64,000 nt of DNA from an uncultured Bacteroidales bacterium (GTDB lineage Bacteria; Bacteroidota; Bacteroidia; Bacteroidales; JAAYJT01): NCBI GenBank assembly GCA_964550455.1, contig CAZJZG010000008.1, positions 12,486 to 76,485 on the forward strand. Reading direction: 5' to 3'. Below, piece by piece: positions 5,153 through 56,250 of the stretch (position 1 is the first letter of the stretch; each line of letters begins with the position of its first letter). Under the pieces are notes generated by a model. The model was given only the letters and a program-made list of their open reading frames with translations, ran no database searches and was not told the origin of the DNA. The translations under genes were made by a program, and so were the position numbers.

Positions 5153-6193
5153 TTAAATAATACTCATTTCTCCCCTCAAAGGAATTTGCAGAAGTCTCTC
5201 AATTTCTTTTTTGGTATAACCGCTGCCCAGCAAATACATAAGTTTGGCAATTGCCGATTCAGTAGTTATATCATATCCGCCAACAACACCAATTTTTCCA
5301 AGCTCAATACTGGTTTCGTATTTTCCTATCTCCACTGAACCACCTTTGCATTGTGTAACATTAAAAATTATAAGGTCCTTTTGTTCAATGGCATATTTCA
5401 GAGCTTTTATAAACCATACATCAGTCGGAGCGTTACCCGCGCCATAAGTCTCTAATATCAAAGCCCTTAATCCTTCAACCTCAATCATTGATCTTACAAC
5501 TTTTTCAGTAATGCCAGGAAACAGTTTTAAGATGGCAACATTGGAATCAAGCTTTTTATGAACCTTAAGTTTTTTAAAATTGGGTTTTTGAATATATGCC
5601 TCATTATAGCGGATATGAACCCCTACTTCCGCCAGAGGTGGGTAATTGCCCGATAAAAAAGCGTCGAAGTTTTCTGCATTGAACTTATTGGTACGATTTC
5701 CACGAAACAAACGGTTCTCAAAATAAATAACCACTTCAGGTACTATAGGCGCATTATCGGTTTGAGCTGAAGCTATCTCAATAGCATTAATAAAATTTTC
5801 ACGCCCATCGGTTCTTACCATGCCCAAAGGCAATTGAGAACCTGTGAAAACAACAGGTTTATTCAGGTTTTCAAGCATAAAGCTCAGTGCCGAAGCTGAA
5901 TAGGCCATGGTATCAGTACCGTGCAAGACCACAAAACCATCATATTTTTCATAATTTTCTTTAATAACACCGGCCAGTTTAATCCAGAAATCAGGATTTA
6001 CATTTGATGAATCAATTAACTGATCGAACGAGTATATATTAATACAGCAGTTCATATTGGCAAGCACCGGAATGCTATTGTAGAGGTTGTCAAAATCAAA
6101 TGGTTTCAGAGCATTACTCTCAGTATCGAGCACCATGCCGATAGTACCACCGGTATAAATAAGAAGGATTTGTGTTTTTTCAACCATAGTCAT
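5153..6193 (-). CDS. ansA: L-asparaginase type I
   Basis: IYTGGTIGM, LHGTDTMAY, TGSQLP and ETYGAGN catalytic motifs. Confidence 0.95.
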   Translation of the reverse strand: MTMVEKTQILLIYTGGTIGMVLDTESNALKPFDFDNLYNSIPVLANMNCCINIYSFDQLIDSSNVNPDFWIKLAGVIKENYEKYDGFVVLHGTDTMAYSASALSFMLENLNKPVVFTGSQLPLGMVRTDGRENFINAIEIASAQTDNAPIVPEVVIYFENRLFRGNRTNKFNAENFDAFLSGNYPPLAEVGVHIRYNEAYIQKPNFKKLKVHKKLDSNVAILKLFPGITEKVVRSMIEVEGLRALILETYGAGNAPTDVWFIKALKYAIEQKDLIIFNVTQCKGGSVEIGKYETSIELGKIGVVGGYDITTESAIAKLMYLLGSGYTKKEIERLLQIPLRGEMSII

Positions 6194-6978
6194 TAAGTGT
6201 TTTTAGCCGGAAGGGTGTTAAAAACCTGTAAGGCAGTTTTAGTAGTTATTTGGGCAACTGTTGATACGTCAATACCAAAGGTTTCAGCAATATGAGCCGC
6301 AATAAGCGGGATGTATGAGCTTTCGTTACGCTGACCTCTGTAAGGAACAGGACTGATAAACGGAGCATCGGTTTCAAGGACCAGATGTTCCAGTCCTATT
6401 TTGGAAATAGTTTCCTTAAGCTTTGAATTCTTAAATGTAACAACCCCTCCTATTCCAAGTTTGAAACCCATATCAACTATTCGCTTTGCCTGCTCGGGTG
6501 AACCTGAAAAGCAGTGAAAAACTCCTGTAAGGCCTGGATTATTAATTTCTCTTAAGATTAAAATTATCTCATCCATTGATTTACGAGAATGAATTACCAA
6601 TGGAAGCTTGTATTCCAAAGCCAGTTCAATTTGTCTTCTGAACACTTCTTCCTGCTCTTTACGAAAAGTAATATCCCAATAAAAATCAAGACCTATTTCT
6701 CCAACGGCACAATACCCTCCTTTGGCTAATCGGGATTCAATGATCTGTAACTCTTTCTTATAATTTTCTTTTACCGATGTAGGATGCAAACCCATCATAG
6801 GGAAGCAGTTTAAAGGGAAATCATCGCAAAGCCGGTGCATAGGTGTTATGGAACTGCTATCAATATTTGGCAGTAATAAATATTGTACGCCTTTATTTAC
6901 AGCGCGCATTACCACCTCATGACGGTCGTTGTCAAAGGCATTAAGATATAAATGAGTATGGGTATCAACGTAAAACAT
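6193..6978 (-). CDS. tatD: TatD-family hydrolase/DNase
   Basis: DTHTHL, GLHP, VGEIGLD, HSR, HCF and ETDAP motifs. Start moved to ATG 6978 (MFYVDTH) because the upstream in-frame ATG lies in the 98-bp duplicated segment. Confidence 0.93.
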   Translation of the reverse strand: MFYVDTHTHLYLNAFDNDRHEVVMRAVNKGVQYLLLPNIDSSSITPMHRLCDDFPLNCFPMMGLHPTSVKENYKKELQIIESRLAKGGYCAVGEIGLDFYWDITFRKEQEEVFRRQIELALEYKLPLVIHSRKSMDEIILILREINNPGLTGVFHCFSGSPEQAKRIVDMGFKLGIGGVVTFKNSKLKETISKIGLEHLVLETDAPFISPVPYRGQRNESSYIPLIAAHIAETFGIDVSTVAQITTKTALQVFNTLPAKNT

Positions 6979-6983
6979 GGGTG

Positions 6984-6991
6984 CAAAAATA
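6984..6991 (-). promoter_or_regulatory. -7 promoter element (TATTTTTG) 6 nt upstream of the tatD ATG
   Basis: TAnnTTTG match; spacing implies a nearly leaderless transcript. Confidence 0.5.
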
Positions 6992-7004
6992 GCAGAATTG
7001 CCAG

Positions 7005-7102
7005 TATCATGCAAAAAGCAGCAAACTTACTGACATAACTACCATTCCTGCTATTACTCCGTAAACTGTTAAATGATGTTCGCCGTATTCGCGTGCTGTT
7101 GG
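7005..7102. repeat. 98-bp direct repeat, copy 1 (duplicate of the zupT 3' end)
   Basis: tatcatgcaaaaagcagc...cgcgtgctgttgg is identical, by base-by-base reading, to 8261-8358. Confidence 0.97.
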
Positions 7103-7253
7103 ACTGCTTACTTTATTTATCAATGATTGATACCTGATAATCAAACTATTATCAAGGGAATACAGATTGTGAAATATTAAAACACAAAAGTAATTATGAT
7201 TATTTCATTTGAAGATTTTCGTAAAGTTTTAGACCTGAAATGCAAAATTCGCT

Positions 7254-7337
7254 TTCAATGTTTTCATCTATAATTGATGTACAATGTTTTGTACTGAATA
7301 CGATATGAATACAATTCTTTACAAGCAATTGATCCAT
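7254..7337 (-). pseudogene. tnpA: Truncated 5' fragment of a second tnpA copy
   Basis: MDQLLVKNCIHIVFSTKHCTSIIDENIE parallels the first 28 residues of the intact TnpA. Segment 7254-7433 aligns ungapped to 8016-8195 with 13 mismatches in 180 bp (manual count). Confidence 0.88.
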
Positions 7338-7351
7338 AACTTTAATATTAC

Positions 7352-7639
7352 GCCCTTTCAGGGCTTTGTTTTGACATACGTTTATAATCACAGGACTTCG
7401 TCCTGAGCTAATATATTACGCCCTTTCAGGGCTTTGTTTTAATATCCTGTTTATAATCACAGAACTATGTCTTGGGCTAAGTTATTTTGCCCTTTCAGGG
7501 CAATGTTTTGATATCCGGAAATTATCACAGGATTTTGGCCTTGGCTGGTATATCTAGCCCTGAAAGGGCTGAATACATCACCACAGGGAATTTACCCTGT
7601 GGATTTTCAATATTACTACTAACTAAGCCCTGAAGGGGC
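7352..7639. repeat. REP/BIME-like array: five GCCCTGAAAGGGC-type hairpins at 68-70 bp spacing with interleaved second hairpins
   Basis: gccctttcagggc at 7352, 7420 and 7489; gccctgaaagggc at 7557; gccctgaaggggc at 7627. Second hairpins caggac-ttc-gtcctg (7391-7405) and ccacaggg...ccctgtgg (7581-7602). Confidence 0.9.
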
Positions 7640-7646
7640 GTAATGC

Positions 7647-8099
7647 CTAATCCCACAGATATCGCTCATCATATTCCATTTTATAATTTTTTAAAAAAGC
7701 CAGATATTCATCCTGAAAAGACTTTTTTTGATGATGATTTCTTTGATTCGCAATATAATCATTAACTTTATCAATATCTTTTGGGTTAACCGAAAATGCC
7801 CCGTAACCATTCTGCCAGTAGAATTTTTTAAATTTATCATCTTTTGTCTTTATCCACTTTGAACTATGTGATTTTAGTTCCTCAAGTAGTTTCATTAGTG
7901 CCACTTTCTTTGAAAGCATGCAAAGTATATGAACATGATTGGTATACCCGCCTATTTTTATGGGATGACATTCCATTTTTTTGCAAATACCACCTAAATA
8001 AGCATACAATTCACCTTCAATGTTTTCATCTATAATTGATGCACAATATTTTGTGCTGAATACGATATGAATATAATTCTTTACAAGCGATTGACCCAT
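7647..8099 (-). CDS. tnpA: IS200/IS605-family Y1 (HUH) transposase / REP-associated tyrosine transposase-like
   Basis: MGQSLVKNYIHIVFSTK, HUH motif NHVHIL, LKSHSSKW, FYWQNGYGAFSV, catalytic Tyr in YIANQ, FQDEY. True start ATG 8099 (150 aa). Confidence 0.95.
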   Translation of the reverse strand: MGQSLVKNYIHIVFSTKYCASIIDENIEGELYAYLGGICKKMECHPIKIGGYTNHVHILCMLSKKVALMKLLEELKSHSSKWIKTKDDKFKKFYWQNGYGAFSVNPKDIDKVNDYIANQRNHHQKKSFQDEYLAFLKNYKMEYDERYLWD

Positions 8100-8113
8100 G
8101 ACTTTAATATTAC

Positions 8114-8194
8114 GCCCTTTCAGGGCTTTGTTTTGATATACGTTTATAATCACAGGACTATGTCCTGAGCTGATATATTTTGCCCTTTCAGGGC
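8114..8194. repeat. REP-like doublet upstream of tnpA
   Basis: gccctttcagggc at 8114 and 8182 (68 bp apart) with caggac-tat-gtcctg (8153-8167) between them. Confidence 0.9.
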
Positions 8195-8260
8195 TATAAT
8201 TCATTATCAATATTATTTTTACACTATTGAAACTTTTTCACAAAATACTTTTGGTATAAA

Positions 8261-8358
8261 TATCATGCAAAAAGCAGCAAACTTACTGACATAACTACCA
8301 TTCCTGCTATTACTCCGTAAACTGTTAAATGATGTTCGCCGTATTCGCGTGCTGTTGG
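8261..8358. repeat. 98-bp direct repeat, copy 2 (in-frame 3' end of zupT)
   Basis: Identical to 7005-7102; encodes the last 31 codons and the stop of the ZIP gene. Confidence 0.97.
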
Positions 8359-9087
8359 CAGCAGGTTATCAATTGAAATAAACACCATGATACCTGCTAC
8401 GGCGGCAAAAAGCACTCCAAAAACAATTTGATTGATGAATGGCAGAAGTATAAGAAACCCTATCAAAGCTCCTAATGGTTCGGCAAGACCGGAATAAAAT
8501 GAAAGTCTGAACGCCTTACCTCGATCACCAGTTCCGTAAAAAACAGGAATAGCCACGGCAATACCTTCAGGAATATTATGAATTGCGATAGCTATAGCGA
8601 TAGGAATACCAAGATTAATATCGACAAGGGCTGATGTAAATGTTGCCAGCCCTTCAGGGAAGTTATGAATTGCAATGGCTATTGCTGAAAACTTTCCGAG
8701 TCTTATAAGGCGGTCTTTCTTTTGTTCAGCAAGCTTTTCCAAATCCATCTCTTCAATTTTATGTATCTCATGTGGGTTTTCTACTTCAGGTACAAATTTG
8801 TCAATCAATCCGATGATAAGCATACCGCCAAAAAAAGCTACGAGAGTAGTTAAATATCCTGCCTGATTTCCCATTTCGGCAGTAAGCATATCTTTTGCTG
8901 TAAAAAATATTTCCACAAATGAAACATAGATCATGATACCGGCTGAAAAACCAAGCGATAGCGAAAGGAAGCGTGTATTGGTTGACCGGGCAAAGTAAGC
9001 TATAGCCCCGCCTATTCCGGTACTTAATCCGGCAAAAAGTGTGAGACCAAAGGCCAGAAGTATATGATTAAGGTCGAAATCATTCAT
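8263..9087 (-). CDS. zupT: ZIP-family zinc/divalent metal transporter
   Basis: Multi-TM protein with IAIHNFPEG, IAIHNIPEG, SGLAEPLGA and AGIMVFIS motifs. Confidence 0.93.
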   Translation of the reverse strand: MNDFDLNHILLAFGLTLFAGLSTGIGGAIAYFARSTNTRFLSLSLGFSAGIMIYVSFVEIFFTAKDMLTAEMGNQAGYLTTLVAFFGGMLIIGLIDKFVPEVENPHEIHKIEEMDLEKLAEQKKDRLIRLGKFSAIAIAIHNFPEGLATFTSALVDINLGIPIAIAIAIHNIPEGIAVAIPVFYGTGDRGKAFRLSFYSGLAEPLGALIGFLILLPFINQIVFGVLFAAVAGIMVFISIDNLLPTAREYGEHHLTVYGVIAGMVVMSVSLLLFA

Positions 9088-9319
9088 AATATATTTTTTG
9101 AAAAATACTTTTAACTAACGCAATGACCAGTAATTATGTTGCAATACCGGGATACACTGATACGAAAATACAGTTAAATAATGTTACAGTTTTACAATGG
9201 ATTGGTATCGAATAATCTCATTCTTATTTTTTCATGTTGTACCATTTAAGGATGTTTCCATGATTCAAAAAAACATTCGGAGTTAAATATAAAAACAAAA
9301 TCTTACAGGCTTATATTAA

Positions 9320-9354
9320 AAACAGGTCATTACTGATTAGCAATGACCTGTTTC
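9320..9354 (-). terminator. Intrinsic terminator after the POT transporter gene
   Basis: 12-bp stem aaacaggtcatt/aatgacctgttt with T-run on the minus strand. Confidence 0.75.
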
Positions 9355-9379
9355 GGGTTATAACTCATATTACAAAGTT

Positions 9380-11209
9380 TTATTCTTTTCTGTGGCCTGT
9401 AGCTCTTTCAAGTCGTTTCAGAATTGAAAAGATAAATACTGCTGAAAGGATACAAGAAACAATAAATATTGACCAAAGCTGCCATAATTCAAGTTTGCCC
9501 CAGAAATCACTTCCTATGAACAAGAATTTGTTTCCTACGGCGGTGGCAAGTAGCCAGCCACCTTGCATGAGACCCTGAAAACGAGCCGGTGCAACTTTTG
9601 AAACAAATGATAATCCCATAGGGCTCAGGAAAAGTTCAGCAATGGTAAGAATCAGATAAGTGCTTATCAGCCAGTAAGGCACAACCCTTGAAGAATCGGG
9701 TACGGGATTATACTTGGTAACACCATTTTCAACATACTGTAATTCATGTGGCGACACTAAACCAATTGATGCAATAAGGATAACTACGAACCCAATAGCA
9801 GCGATAATCATACCTATTCCAATCTTTTTAGGTGTTGATGGTTCCATATTTTTATTTCTCAGCCATGTAAATACAGCCATTACCGGGAAAGTAAGTGAAA
9901 CTATAAACAACGGGTTGAACGACTGGAATTTCTCAGGTTCAATAGGATTAATGGCAGGATTTCTTGCAATAAAATAACCTGTTAAAGCACCAAAAACAAT
10001 AGCCATGGCTCCACCTATAAGTCTATTTGAACCCTTTTTGTTGAAAATAAGCAATACTAATCCGGCAACTGCTCCTATAAATGCAAGCATTGATTCAAGT
10101 TTGAAAAAGATGTTTGTAAAAGGTCCTACATTTTTAACAGTATAGTCGCGTGCAAAGAAAGTAAGTGTAAGTCCATTTTGATGAAAAGACATCCAGAAAA
10201 ATATTACAACAACAAATACCAGTATAAGTGATGTTACACGCGGGCGTTCATCTTTGGTGGATATTTGGTACATCATTGCAACAAAACCAATAAACAGCCC
10301 AACTGCAGCACCCAAAGCCAAATCTTTCATCAAAACGAAGAAAATAACCGATGTAGCTACCATCAATCCTGCTGCAAGTAAAAAGCTAACAACATTAGCT
10401 TTAGCTTTATTCTGGGTATCTTCAGTTTTAGCAACTCTTTCAACGCTTGGTAAAAGTTTATTGAAAATAATATAAACCAGCATCGAAATAACCATTGCTC
10501 CGGCAGCTATCCCAAATGCATAATTGTATCCTTTTGAGAAAGCTGTAATATAGTTATCAGCAAAAGCATGCAGGTCTGTTACGATAGTACCGGAAACCTT
10601 ATTGGCAAGCTCCTGAAATTTAGTCATATCCTCTAGTGTTCCTGCCTCAAAAGCATGACACATAGCCGGAAGGCTTGCATCATGCTCAAACCCCTGAGTT
10701 CTCAGAAACCAGTTTCGGACTCCTGTTGCAGCATAAGGAGCGAAAAACGCACCAATATTGATCCCCATATAAAAAATCATAAAAGCAGTATCACGAACTT
10801 TTGAATAAAGAGGATTATCATACATCTGCCCTACTACAGCCTGAAGATTACCTTTAAAAAGACCATTACCCAGCGCAATGGTAAAAAGTCCGATAGCCGT
10901 AATTGCCAGAGGATTACCCGGTATTGCCATTAATATATATCCGGCAAACATGATAATGATACCCATCAGGATCACAAATTTATATTTCCTGGTAGCATCA
11001 GCAAGAATACCTCCTATAAGAGCCAGAGCATAAATACCGAAATAAAACCAGGAATAATAGTCACCAGCCTGAGATTCACTAAGCCCGTATCTGGCCTGCA
11101 AAAACAAAACCAGGATTGCCATCATGGTGTAAAATCCAAAGCGCTCTCCCATATTGGAGAAAAACGCAACCAATAACCCTTTTGGGTGTCCTTTCATCAT
11201 AGTTGTCAA
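9380..11209 (-). CDS. POT-family proton-dependent oligopeptide transporter
   Basis: GHPKGL, ExxERFxFY-like MGERFGFY, GNGLFKGN, FYMGINIGA, FQSFNP and ELFLSPMGLS motifs. Confidence 0.93.
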   Translation of the reverse strand: MTTMMKGHPKGLLVAFFSNMGERFGFYTMMAILVLFLQARYGLSESQAGDYYSWFYFGIYALALIGGILADATRKYKFVILMGIIIMFAGYILMAIPGNPLAITAIGLFTIALGNGLFKGNLQAVVGQMYDNPLYSKVRDTAFMIFYMGINIGAFFAPYAATGVRNWFLRTQGFEHDASLPAMCHAFEAGTLEDMTKFQELANKVSGTIVTDLHAFADNYITAFSKGYNYAFGIAAGAMVISMLVYIIFNKLLPSVERVAKTEDTQNKAKANVVSFLLAAGLMVATSVIFFVLMKDLALGAAVGLFIGFVAMMYQISTKDERPRVTSLILVFVVVIFFWMSFHQNGLTLTFFARDYTVKNVGPFTNIFFKLESMLAFIGAVAGLVLLIFNKKGSNRLIGGAMAIVFGALTGYFIARNPAINPIEPEKFQSFNPLFIVSLTFPVMAVFTWLRNKNMEPSTPKKIGIGMIIAAIGFVVILIASIGLVSPHELQYVENGVTKYNPVPDSSRVVPYWLISTYLILTIAELFLSPMGLSFVSKVAPARFQGLMQGGWLLATAVGNKFLFIGSDFWGKLELWQLWSIFIVSCILSAVFIFSILKRLERATGHRKE

Positions 11210-54348: not shown

Positions 54349-56250
54349 TCAATAGGCTCTGACGTTTCTTCCTTCAATGTAATTAATAAAAGACCGGTTC
54401 ACAACTTTATTTCCTCCCGGAGTTGGGTAATTACCTGTAAAATACCAATCGCCTTTATGGTTTGGGCAGGCTTCATGAAGGTTCTCAATAGTATTGAAAA
54501 CAACACTTACCTTTGCGTTTACAGAAGTAGGACGCACAAGTTCAGATATCTTTTCTGAAATCTGGTCAGCACTGAAAGGACGATAGATTTCTTTTACATG
54601 ATTAATTATTTCTTTCGCAGGTAAATTTTCCTGCTGTTTACATTTTCTGTAAACCTCGTTAATAATATGCGACTGATGACTTTCTCTCAATAATGCTATG
54701 GCAGCACGAAAAGCAATGAAATCGCCTAATTTAGCCATATCAATCCCGTAACAATCAGGATAACGTATTTGTGGCGCAGACGAAGCTATTACAATATGTT
54801 TCGGACCGAGACGATCAAGAATGTGAATTATACTTTTTCGCAATGTAGTTCCCCGAACTATTGAATCATCAAGTACTACAAGGGTATCAATTCCGGTTCT
54901 TACAATTCCGTAGGTAACATCGTAAACATGCGCCACCAGGTCGTCGCGCCCTATATCCTGGCTAATGAAAGTCCGCAGTTTATGGTCTTTTACTGCTACC
55001 TTTTCAACGCGTGGACTGAAAGATAAAATCTCATTTATCAGTTGCTCGTTCAGTTCGTTTTTATGTTGTAATAATTTTTCGCATTTTACTTTATTGCAAA
55101 ATTCGTTAAGAGCTTCCACCATACCATAATAGGCAACTGCAGCAGTGTTGGGGATATAGGAAAACACAGTGTCAGTCAAATTATAATCAACAGTTTTAAG
55201 AATGGTATGGGTCAACATTTTGCCAAGCTTTTTGCGTTCAAGGTAAATCTCAGCATCAGTACCCCTTGAAAAATATATTCGCTCAAACGAACATGGTGAT
55301 TTTTCAACAGGTTCAATACATTTGCTTTCAACCCAATATCCATTTTGCTTGATGATAAGCGCATGCCCGGGCTTAATTTCCCTGATTTCGCCAAACGGAA
55401 CACTAAAAGCTGTTTGAATTGCAGGTCGTTCAGATGTGATTACAATAACTTCATCATCAGCGTAATAAAATGCCGGACGAATGCCAGCAGGGTCGCGCAT
55501 TACAAAGGCATCACCATGACCAAGCATACCTACGATTACATAACCTCCATCCCAATTTGAAGTAGCATTTGTAAGTATTTTCTGAAGATCAAGATTTTCA
55601 GCAATATGAGCGCTTATCTCTTTTTTTAAATAACCTTTTTGCTTGAATTTTCGGTATAGTTCTTCATTTTCATAATCCAGAAAATGCCCGATCTTTTCAA
55701 GAATTGTTACAGTATCAGATGTTTCAAGTGGATATTGTCCTATCTCAACCAGCAAATCAAAAAGTTCGCCTACGTTGGTCAGATTAAAATTTCCTGCAAG
55801 AATAAGATTTCGGGTCTTCCAGTTGTTTTGCCTGATAAATGGGTGCACATTCCGTAAATCATTCTCACCGTATGTTCCATATCGAAGATGACCAAGAAAT
55901 AATTCTCCGGTAAAATCAATATTACTTTTCAGCCATTCCACATCCCTTAATCTGTCAGGATAGCTTTCTTTTATCTTGTTAATATTTTCAAACATCTGAT
56001 AAAAAATATCATTTACAGGCGTATCAGCCACTGAACGCATATGACTTATATATCTCTGACCCGGCTCTGTATCAAGCTTAATACCGGCAATTCCGGCACC
56101 ATCATGTCCGCGGTTATGTTGTTTTTCCATCAGCAGATGTAACTTGTTTAAGCCATAAAAAGCTGTACCATATTTAAATAAGTAATATTCAAGTGGTTTC
56201 AACAGCCTTATCAGGGCAATGCCACATTCGTGCTTAATTTGTTCGCTCAC
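54349..56250 (-). CDS. purF: Amidophosphoribosyltransferase (long Bacteroidota type)
   Basis: KHECG, QHNRG.DGAG, HLRYGT, GNFN, RDPAGIRP, CSFERIYFSR, DDSIVRGTT and SSAPQIRYP motifs. Confidence 0.93.
   Translation of the reverse strand: MSEQIKHECGIALIRLLKPLEYYLFKYGTAFYGLNKLHLLMEKQHNRGHDGAGIAGIKLDTEPGQRYISHMRSVADTPVNDIFYQMFENINKIKESYPDRLRDVEWLKSNIDFTGELFLGHLRYGTYGENDLRNVHPFIRQNNWKTRNLILAGNFNLTNVGELFDLLVEIGQYPLETSDTVTILEKIGHFLDYENEELYRKFKQKGYLKKEISAHIAENLDLQKILTNATSNWDGGYVIVGMLGHGDAFVMRDPAGIRPAFYYADDEVIVITSERPAIQTAFSVPFGEIREIKPGHALIIKQNGYWVESKCIEPVEKSPCSFERIYFSRGTDAEIYLERKKLGKMLTHTILKTVDYNLTDTVFSYIPNTAAVAYYGMVEALNEFCNKVKCEKLLQHKNELNEQLINEILSFSPRVEKVAVKDHKLRTFISQDIGRDDLVAHVYDVTYGIVRTGIDTLVVLDDSIVRGTTLRKSIIHILDRLGPKHIVIASSAPQIRYPDCYGIDMAKLGDFIAFRAAIALLRESHQSHIINEVYRKCKQQENLPAKEIINHVKEIYRPFSADQISEKISELVRPTSVNAKVSVVFNTIENLHEACPNHKGDWYFTGNYPTPGGNKVVNRSFINYIEGRNVRAY

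Follow-up and report, generated by a model that had tools for sequence, protein, structure and literature searches.

A RAYT-like transposase module bracketed by a 98 bp duplication of the zupT 3′ end in an uncultured Bacteroidales bacterium

The window analysed here, a stretch of 64,000 nt from an uncultured Bacteroidales bacterium (contig CAZJZG010000008.1 of assembly GCA_964550455.1, positions 12,486–76,485), carries between the transporter gene zupT and the nuclease gene tatD a cassette of 1158 bp that encodes a Y1 (HUH) transposase, tnpA. On each side of the cassette stands the same 98 nt sequence (R): R1 (7005–7102) on the tatD side and R2 (8261–8358) on the zupT side, which a repeat search of the window reports as a direct repeat with 100% identity and a spacing of 1256 nt. 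The original prediction, made from this DNA alone, had described the identical copies, the cassette with its contents and the intact zupT gene, all of which are confirmed. We favour, with moderate confidence, an explanation in which a module resembling the REP (repetitive extragenic palindrome)-associated tyrosine transposase (RAYT) units was inserted once and long ago, the 98 bp were duplicated in a one-off event other than transposition, and the two copies have since undergone gene conversion and, in some chromosomes, deletion by R1–R2 recombination.

The zupT–tatD locus and the transposase module

All genes in this region lie on the minus strand, in the order POT transporter, zupT, cassette, R1, tatD and asparaginase gene. 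zupT (8263–9087) is intact, with 274 amino acids and its stop codon within these coordinates, and matches the Pfam family Zip and the NCBIfam equivalog for ZupT (375.6 bits, cutoff 252). R2, the functional copy of the repeat, covers the final 31 codons of zupT together with the stop codon and the 2 nt that follow it. R1, a non-coding pseudo-copy of the same gene end (also minus), lies directly upstream of the native leader of tatD (6193–6978), which encodes a YchF/TatD-family nuclease (TIGR00010, 235 bits) with a probable ATG at 6978, 26 nt after R1. A duplication reaching past 98 bp into degenerate zupT sequence was considered and rejected [p = 0.16, 0.035 (40 nt) and 0.26 (60 nt) against shuffles], and no signal of a zupT extension beyond R was seen in the sister species (L005, see below) in local or junction-anchored alignments. 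zupT also contains a 35 nt internal repeat (8564–8598 and 8651–8685, 83% identical) encoding two HNxPEG motifs, an ordinary reflection of the internal symmetry for which ZIP transporters are known.

Read from the zupT side, and thus along the minus strand throughout, the cassette begins with a 50 nt spacer (U2, 8211–8260), all but ~10 nt of which is homologous to the upstream flank of RAYT units from other phyla; blastn matches to the loci L085, L086 and L089 begin at window positions 8250–8234. There follows an upstream REP-like array (8101–8210) in which a CAGGAC/GTCCTG hairpin separates two GCCCTGAAAGGGC hairpins (DNA fold z = −4.2). The intact tnpA gene (7647–8099) encodes 150 amino acids plus a stop codon and matches Y1_Tnp in Pfam (1.2e-24) and IS200/IS605 in NCBIfam (69 bits); its open reading frame (ORF) spans 8210–7647, with a probable start at 8099. 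Downstream of the gene (7550–7646) the REP hairpins take the inverted orientation (palindromes at 7627–7639 and 7557–7569, fold z = −4.8) and enclose a CCACAGGG/CCCTGTGG hairpin at 7581–7602. A second REP array (7339–7515), whose three units, each of 68–69 nt and with palindromes at 7489, 7420 and 7352, are oriented like those of the upstream array, belongs to a second, partial transposase unit, and it leads into tnpA′ (7246–7338), a 5′ fragment of a second transposase copy of ~31 codons with 78% amino acid identity to tnpA, found by tblastn at 7338–7243. The tatD-side end of the cassette (U1) is a 143 nt segment (7103–7245) that is neither transposase, REP nor zupT and that has no match in the RAYT loci or the other sequences compared, orthologues excepted.

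The cassette contains an internal duplication (7246–7461 and 8008–8223) of 216 nt with 88% identity; its best 188 nt contain 15 mismatches, close to the 13 in 180 bp counted originally. Seven copies of the palindrome GCCCTTTCAGGGC stand in the cassette, six of them exact and one with a single mismatch. Outside the cassette the 64 kb hold no exact or one-mismatch copy, and only two-mismatch matches at 54569 and 56205 were found, where 0.8 are expected by chance at up to two mismatches. From its sequence the cassette can be described as a RAYT-like module, an IS200-type Y1 gene with inverted REP hairpins in ~1.3 tandem units, together with 143 nt of unrelated DNA.

tnpA scores 87 bits against Y1_Tnp (PF01797, cutoff 23), which places it among the Y1 HUH transposases, and aligns with IS608 TnpA (PDB: 2a6m) in both the HUH motif (NHVHIL/DHIHIL) and the segment of the catalytic tyrosine (DYIANQ/QYIENQ). 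Comparison with the L005 copy gives a ratio of non-synonymous to synonymous divergence (dN/dS) of 0.27, which indicates purifying selection, and a dS below that of the neighbouring genes. Slow evolution is also reported for RAYT groups 4 and 5 (Bertels 2017, PMC5581495), and in this respect tnpA resembles them. About 7000 homologues were found; the closest are 150-residue proteins, 72–77% identical, in Bacteroidota and Ignavibacteria, and the JGI annotation labels several homologues 'REP element-mobilizing transposase RayT'. Those in Ignavibacteria are found at a single conserved position, with an M48 peptidase gene on one side and an acyltransferase/gatC operon on the other, and the conservation of this syntenic site in several Ignavibacteria suggests vertical inheritance of the related genes. 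The window shares with L085, L089 and L187 the inverted arrangement of REP sequences, in which GCCCTGAAAGGGC lies upstream of the Y1 gene and its reverse complement downstream.

Nucleotide homology to other RAYT units over the whole unit spans window positions ~8250–7556 only. The 13 nt palindrome GCCCTGAAAGGGC and the entire non-coding flank of the unit retain ~72% nucleotide identity between Bacteroidota and Ignavibacteria (L085, L086, L089, L183 and L187), an unusually high value for non-coding DNA. In two of the Ignavibacteria loci (L086: 3846–3890; L089: 3870–3932) homology to the unit starts within the M48 peptidase gene as called, 45–60 nt before its 3′ end; judged by these alignments, the unit seems to supply the last codons of that gene and would be a second case of the module on a gene end.

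With RAYTs, which are accompanied by flanking REP or REPIN (paired REP) sequences (Nunvar 2010, PMC2817692; Bertels and Rainey 2011, PMC3116915; Bertels 2017, PMC5581495), the cassette shares a Y1 HUH transposase of ~150 residues and short GC-stem palindromes that flank the gene in inverted orientation. The dispersal of cognate REPs in many copies over the genome, a feature of RAYT systems, is not apparent at the scale of the 64 kb, and tnpA by sequence matches IS608 TnpA rather than the solved Escherichia coli RAYT. A term search of PMC5581495 and the abstracts of the other papers yielded no RAYT locus enclosed by a long repeat of an adjacent gene's end. Features in common with the IS200/IS605 family (IS608, ISDra2) are the NCBIfam equivalog match, the HUH and tyrosine motifs and the subterminal hairpins. 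In contrast to that family, the hairpins of the cassette are inverted rather than on the same strand, and the cassette was not classed as a mobile insertion sequence; its gene is apparently single-copy, the window containing one intact tnpA, one fragment and no second intact copy, with an orthologue in L005, and its relatives sit at fixed sites.

Filled and empty alleles in assemblies and metagenomes

The filled structure recurs in three independent assemblies (L001, L002 and L004). It is also present in L005, a metagenome-assembled genome of a sister species that was assembled with k = 127, longer than the 98 nt repeat; the two R copies of L005 differ at five positions and are therefore two physical sequences. 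Across eight public metagenomes, depth relative to the flanks is 1.8–2.7 for the 98 nt unitig and 0.8–1.4 for the cassette, which fits two R copies per cassette-bearing chromosome, although depth alone is also compatible with an empty site plus a circle. Contigs from these public runs were built at k = 31 and are interrupted precisely where the 98-mer starts and ends, and the case for the filled structure is accordingly carried by the assemblies with k > 98 and by L005. Taken together, the three assemblies, the approximately twofold depth of the 98-mer and the k = 127 genome exclude the misassembly against which the original prediction had warned.

A single-copy site free of the cassette had been expected in relatives, and one was found in L101, a more distant relative (ZupT 86% identical) in which zupT is followed by ~32 nt, tatD with a homologous leader and the asparaginase gene (aspG). 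This site lies on a k = 31 contig, which is unable to cross a repeated R. On comparative grounds the empty zupT–tatD junction is taken as the ancestral state; in still more distant relatives zupT adjoins arsC and a fumarase gene. Within the species of the window the cassette is missing from contig L003 (MEGAHIT, k141), which carries just one R, and 13 further contigs resemble L003 in this. L003 is 99.5% identical to the window, has single-nucleotide polymorphisms (SNPs) of its own and is sister to the filled strains. Because the outgroup L005 is filled, the simplest history runs from an empty ancestor through one insertion before the species split to a later precise loss, and the L003 lineage most likely lost the cassette by recombination of R with R. 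The excision between the repeats that had been foreseen agrees with these contigs. An allele with two adjacent R copies and no cassette was not found among the 21 contigs of the species, L005 and L101.

One further contig (L103; JGI Ga0116160_1068969, 1–1619) shows a crossover from the full to the truncated transposase within a 27 nt identical stretch. The crossover removes 762 bp and with them most of the intact transposase gene, and L103 may be a third natural allele with no working transposase or a low-coverage assembly chimera.

The window sequence is almost unchanged in metagenomes from activated sludge, wastewater, digesters, bioreactors and soil. The same strain-level sequence (6000–9500) occurs in more than 10 studies dated 2016–2025, the flanking contig measures 16,047 or 16,048 nt in seven of the eight runs, and two haplotypes are distinguished by 7 SNPs in 3.5 kb. 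The host is a cosmopolitan, nearly clonal Bacteroidales population.

Four metatranscriptomes contain no RNA over 7053–7286 and cover tatD and R, a pattern compatible with a start of tatD transcription inside R1. RNA contigs join zupT, R and tatD in two of the four runs, which is not counted as evidence of an empty site, and one RNA assembly joins 8100 back to 7339 through a common 36-mer; these joins are probably graph collapses, caused for instance by the untranscribed 7053–7286. A scan for sigma-70 promoters gave results no better than shuffled sequence, and the Bacteroidetes −33/−7 pattern is not enriched. At position 73 of R (7026–7033 and 8282–8289, minus strand), TAAGTTTG matches the Bacteroidetes −7 box TAnnTTTG; lying ~45 nt upstream of the tatD ATG, it could be the native tatD promoter carried within the repeat, and we regard it as a lead only.

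Age of the insertion and concerted evolution of the repeats

The flanks of L005 are ~92% identical to those of the window (dS of 0.35 for zupT and 0.25 for tatD). Its cassette is orthologous and has, by alignment, the same two junctions, with one extra REP unit and a further deletion of 135 nt in the transposase fragment. Between the species the cassette has diverged by 5.5–17% and the flanks by 3–13%. Since the cassette is no less diverged than its flanks and the junctions are the same, it was already present in the common ancestor of the two species. A recent transfer of the cassette between them was rejected, as divergence shows no dip across it.

At R positions 30, 32, 56 and 91 the species differ and both copies within each genome agree; these are all four of the interior species differences. 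Within genomes, R1 and R2 differ at 0 of 98 positions in the window and at 5 of 98 in L005, where the differences are confined to the edges (positions 1–3 and 97) and position 20, and the 97 nt of non-coding DNA adjoining R are 17% diverged between the species. Such a distribution is the mark of gene conversion, rather than recency, behind the likeness of R1 and R2, which have evolved in concert. With identity kept up by gene conversion, the argument that identical copies must be young fails: the view that the flanking event was younger than the internal duplication is not borne out by a structure found in both species at a dS of 0.25–0.35 with four substitutions common to both copies.

Origin of the 98 bp duplication

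In the scenario that we favour, a single entry of the module into the ancestral zupT–(~30 nt)–tatD junction would have taken place in an ancestor common to the two Bacteroidales species. The terminal 98 bp of the zupT region would have been duplicated by the insertion, leaving zupT with its C-terminus (R2) and tatD with its native upstream sequence (R1). Two candidate routes are a templated insertion, in which a replication template switch re-entered the original template 98 bp upstream, and a homology-anchored illegitimate integration of a DNA fragment; of the possible products, selection would keep only one that spared both zupT and the upstream context of tatD. Thereafter intrachromosomal gene conversion has held R1 and R2 identical or nearly so, crossing-over between them would have removed the cassette from one strain lineage or more and would probably alter the copy number of the unit in populations, and the internal repeats would recombine as well. 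The two ends of the cassette differ in kind: the zupT-side end is a natural RAYT-unit flank placed at a gene end, whereas on the tatD side tnpA′ is truncated at codon 32 and followed by the unrelated 143 nt, which are joined to an arbitrary position within zupT. This asymmetry favours a single illegitimate event.

Templated insertions by fork stalling and template switching or microhomology-mediated break-induced replication (FoSTeS/MMBIR), and homology-facilitated illegitimate recombination in bacteria, give products of this shape, with a duplicated stretch of the target on either side of foreign or ectopic DNA. Such products likewise have one end where homology would stop and another at an arbitrary breakpoint. 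The likeness is one of outcome only, as no donor template was found here and no microhomology is evident at the cassette junctions.

Several observations weigh against this reconstruction. For the species of the window itself, k = 31 contigs cannot separate the order tatD–R–cassette–R–zupT from an empty site accompanied by a circle at equal dosage, and the depth ratios are mean k-mer depths of short unitigs that are noisy at low coverage. L003 could be a retained or re-imported ancestral empty allele rather than a deletion. The flanking genes have a higher dS than tnpA (0.15), which would also fit a somewhat later arrival of tnpA. Finally, the step of origin is inferred, no donor locus, circle or intermediate having been found.

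The likeliest of the rival readings is a Campbell-type origin, in which a circle of 1256 bp (R plus cassette) was integrated by homologous recombination at a single R and may still cycle between circle or tandem array and chromosome. The original prediction had proposed such a circle, and the gene-restoring repeat, which ends 2 nt past the stop codon, and the existence of empty alleles both suit it. So does the depth in the deepest of the eight runs (X26, a bioreactor sampled at 760-fold), where the cassette reaches 1.43 and R 2.53 times the flanks, equivalent to ~0.45 extra R-plus-cassette units per chromosome; an excess of this sort is to be expected if R mediates unequal crossing-over or the release of circles. 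Across the eight runs the cassette-to-flank ratio in unitig k-mer depth is 0.80–1.43, and the depth of R minus that of the cassette, relative to the flank, is ~1.0 in the four best-behaved runs and 1.25–1.54 in the others. Tandem amplification explains the extra depth equally well, however. In a circle with R on board both novel junctions must exist beforehand, so that their origin is left unexplained, and the event is old, not recent. The JGI metagenome contigs contain no U1–R–U2 junction such as a circle or tandem array would create, R is absent from the viral contig collection, and the cassette has no match in plasmid or phage collections. We consider this origin unlikely, and slightly more doubtful still a broader idea in which the 1256 bp unit is an integrase-free, homology-driven module that pops out or amplifies in tandem by RecA-type recombination at R and re-enters empty chromosomes, with, in its stronger version, a duplication made by the Y1 enzyme at a zupT hairpin. 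If it held, natural populations would maintain a domesticated transposase that is polymorphic in both presence and copy number. Elements that use tyrosine integrases typically leave duplications that restore a gene 3′ end, and R1 and R2 could on that ground be the attR and attL of a phage or integrative element in the zupT 3′ end, since decayed to ~1.2 kb, with the transposase as cargo or a later arrival; the repeat restores the interrupted gene and can recombine to excise the insert as att sites do, and the 143 nt at one end have no assigned source. Here, in contrast, the insert is of 1.16 kb and the identity of its repeats has been kept for long by gene conversion. As originally noted, no integrase is present: Y1_Tnp is the sole Pfam match among the ORFs between the repeats, no other element gene occurs there, and synteny with the empty site shows that only 1256 bp were added. 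The zupT-side end is RAYT-flank-like almost to the junction, which leaves ~10 nt for an element end, and with no phage, plasmid or viral match either, an integrase-borne remnant is quite improbable.

The enzyme itself might be thought to have made the duplication, by cutting at a zupT hairpin and at the gene end in a replication-coupled insertion. It is intact and under purifying selection, and the zupT-internal breakpoint coincides with a hairpin (8350–8365, minus strand; TGCTG-CCAA-CAGCA), the boundary of the repeat falling exactly at the 5′ edge of the loop. The hairpin is weak and not significant (−4.8 kcal/mol, z = −2.0; 8 of 200 shuffles fold as well), and the tatD-side end of the cassette is neither a REP end nor any other end of an element. 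The flanks of related tnpA copies, which it had been suggested to examine for long direct repeats, contain none in four other genomic contexts of transposases that are 72–77% identical and have the same palindrome. IS200/IS605 chemistry makes no target duplications, as is established and stated in PMC6006769 and PMC5581495. A replication- or repair-coupled HUH route is thus unsupported, a duplication made by the Y1 transposase is very unlikely, and the 98 bp repeat is probably unrelated to transposition. Alternatively, a tandem R–R duplication may have come first, with the cassette inserted later exactly at its junction. Tandem duplications are common and a new junction could create a target; against this, two events would be needed at exactly the same nucleotide and the cassette-free R–R allele was missing from every contig compared, so that we give this order of events only a slim chance. 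Slimmer again is the chance of an assembly artefact, in which the chromosome has a single R, the cassette lies elsewhere or is extrachromosomal, and the assembler resolved a loop in the graph. The graph is ambiguous at k = 31, and SPAdes-type contigs are filled while the k141 MEGAHIT contig L003 is empty; yet the SNPs of L003 mark a different strain and not the same data resolved otherwise, L005 is filled at k = 127 with distinguishable R copies, and in eight samples, drawn from different studies, cassette and flanks remain close in depth.

On the preferred reading, an ancient insertion with a one-off duplication, the locus reveals no new mechanism of transposition or integration. The insertion into a 26 nt intergenic gap survived probably because the duplication preserved the end of zupT and the upstream context of tatD. 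The locus also shows that identity of flanking repeats is no clock, 98 bp copies that lie 1.2 kb apart having been kept identical across a species split by gene conversion. Although RAYT-type loci are usually regarded as fixed, such a locus can be present in some strains and absent from others when repeats that flank it by accident permit its precise loss.

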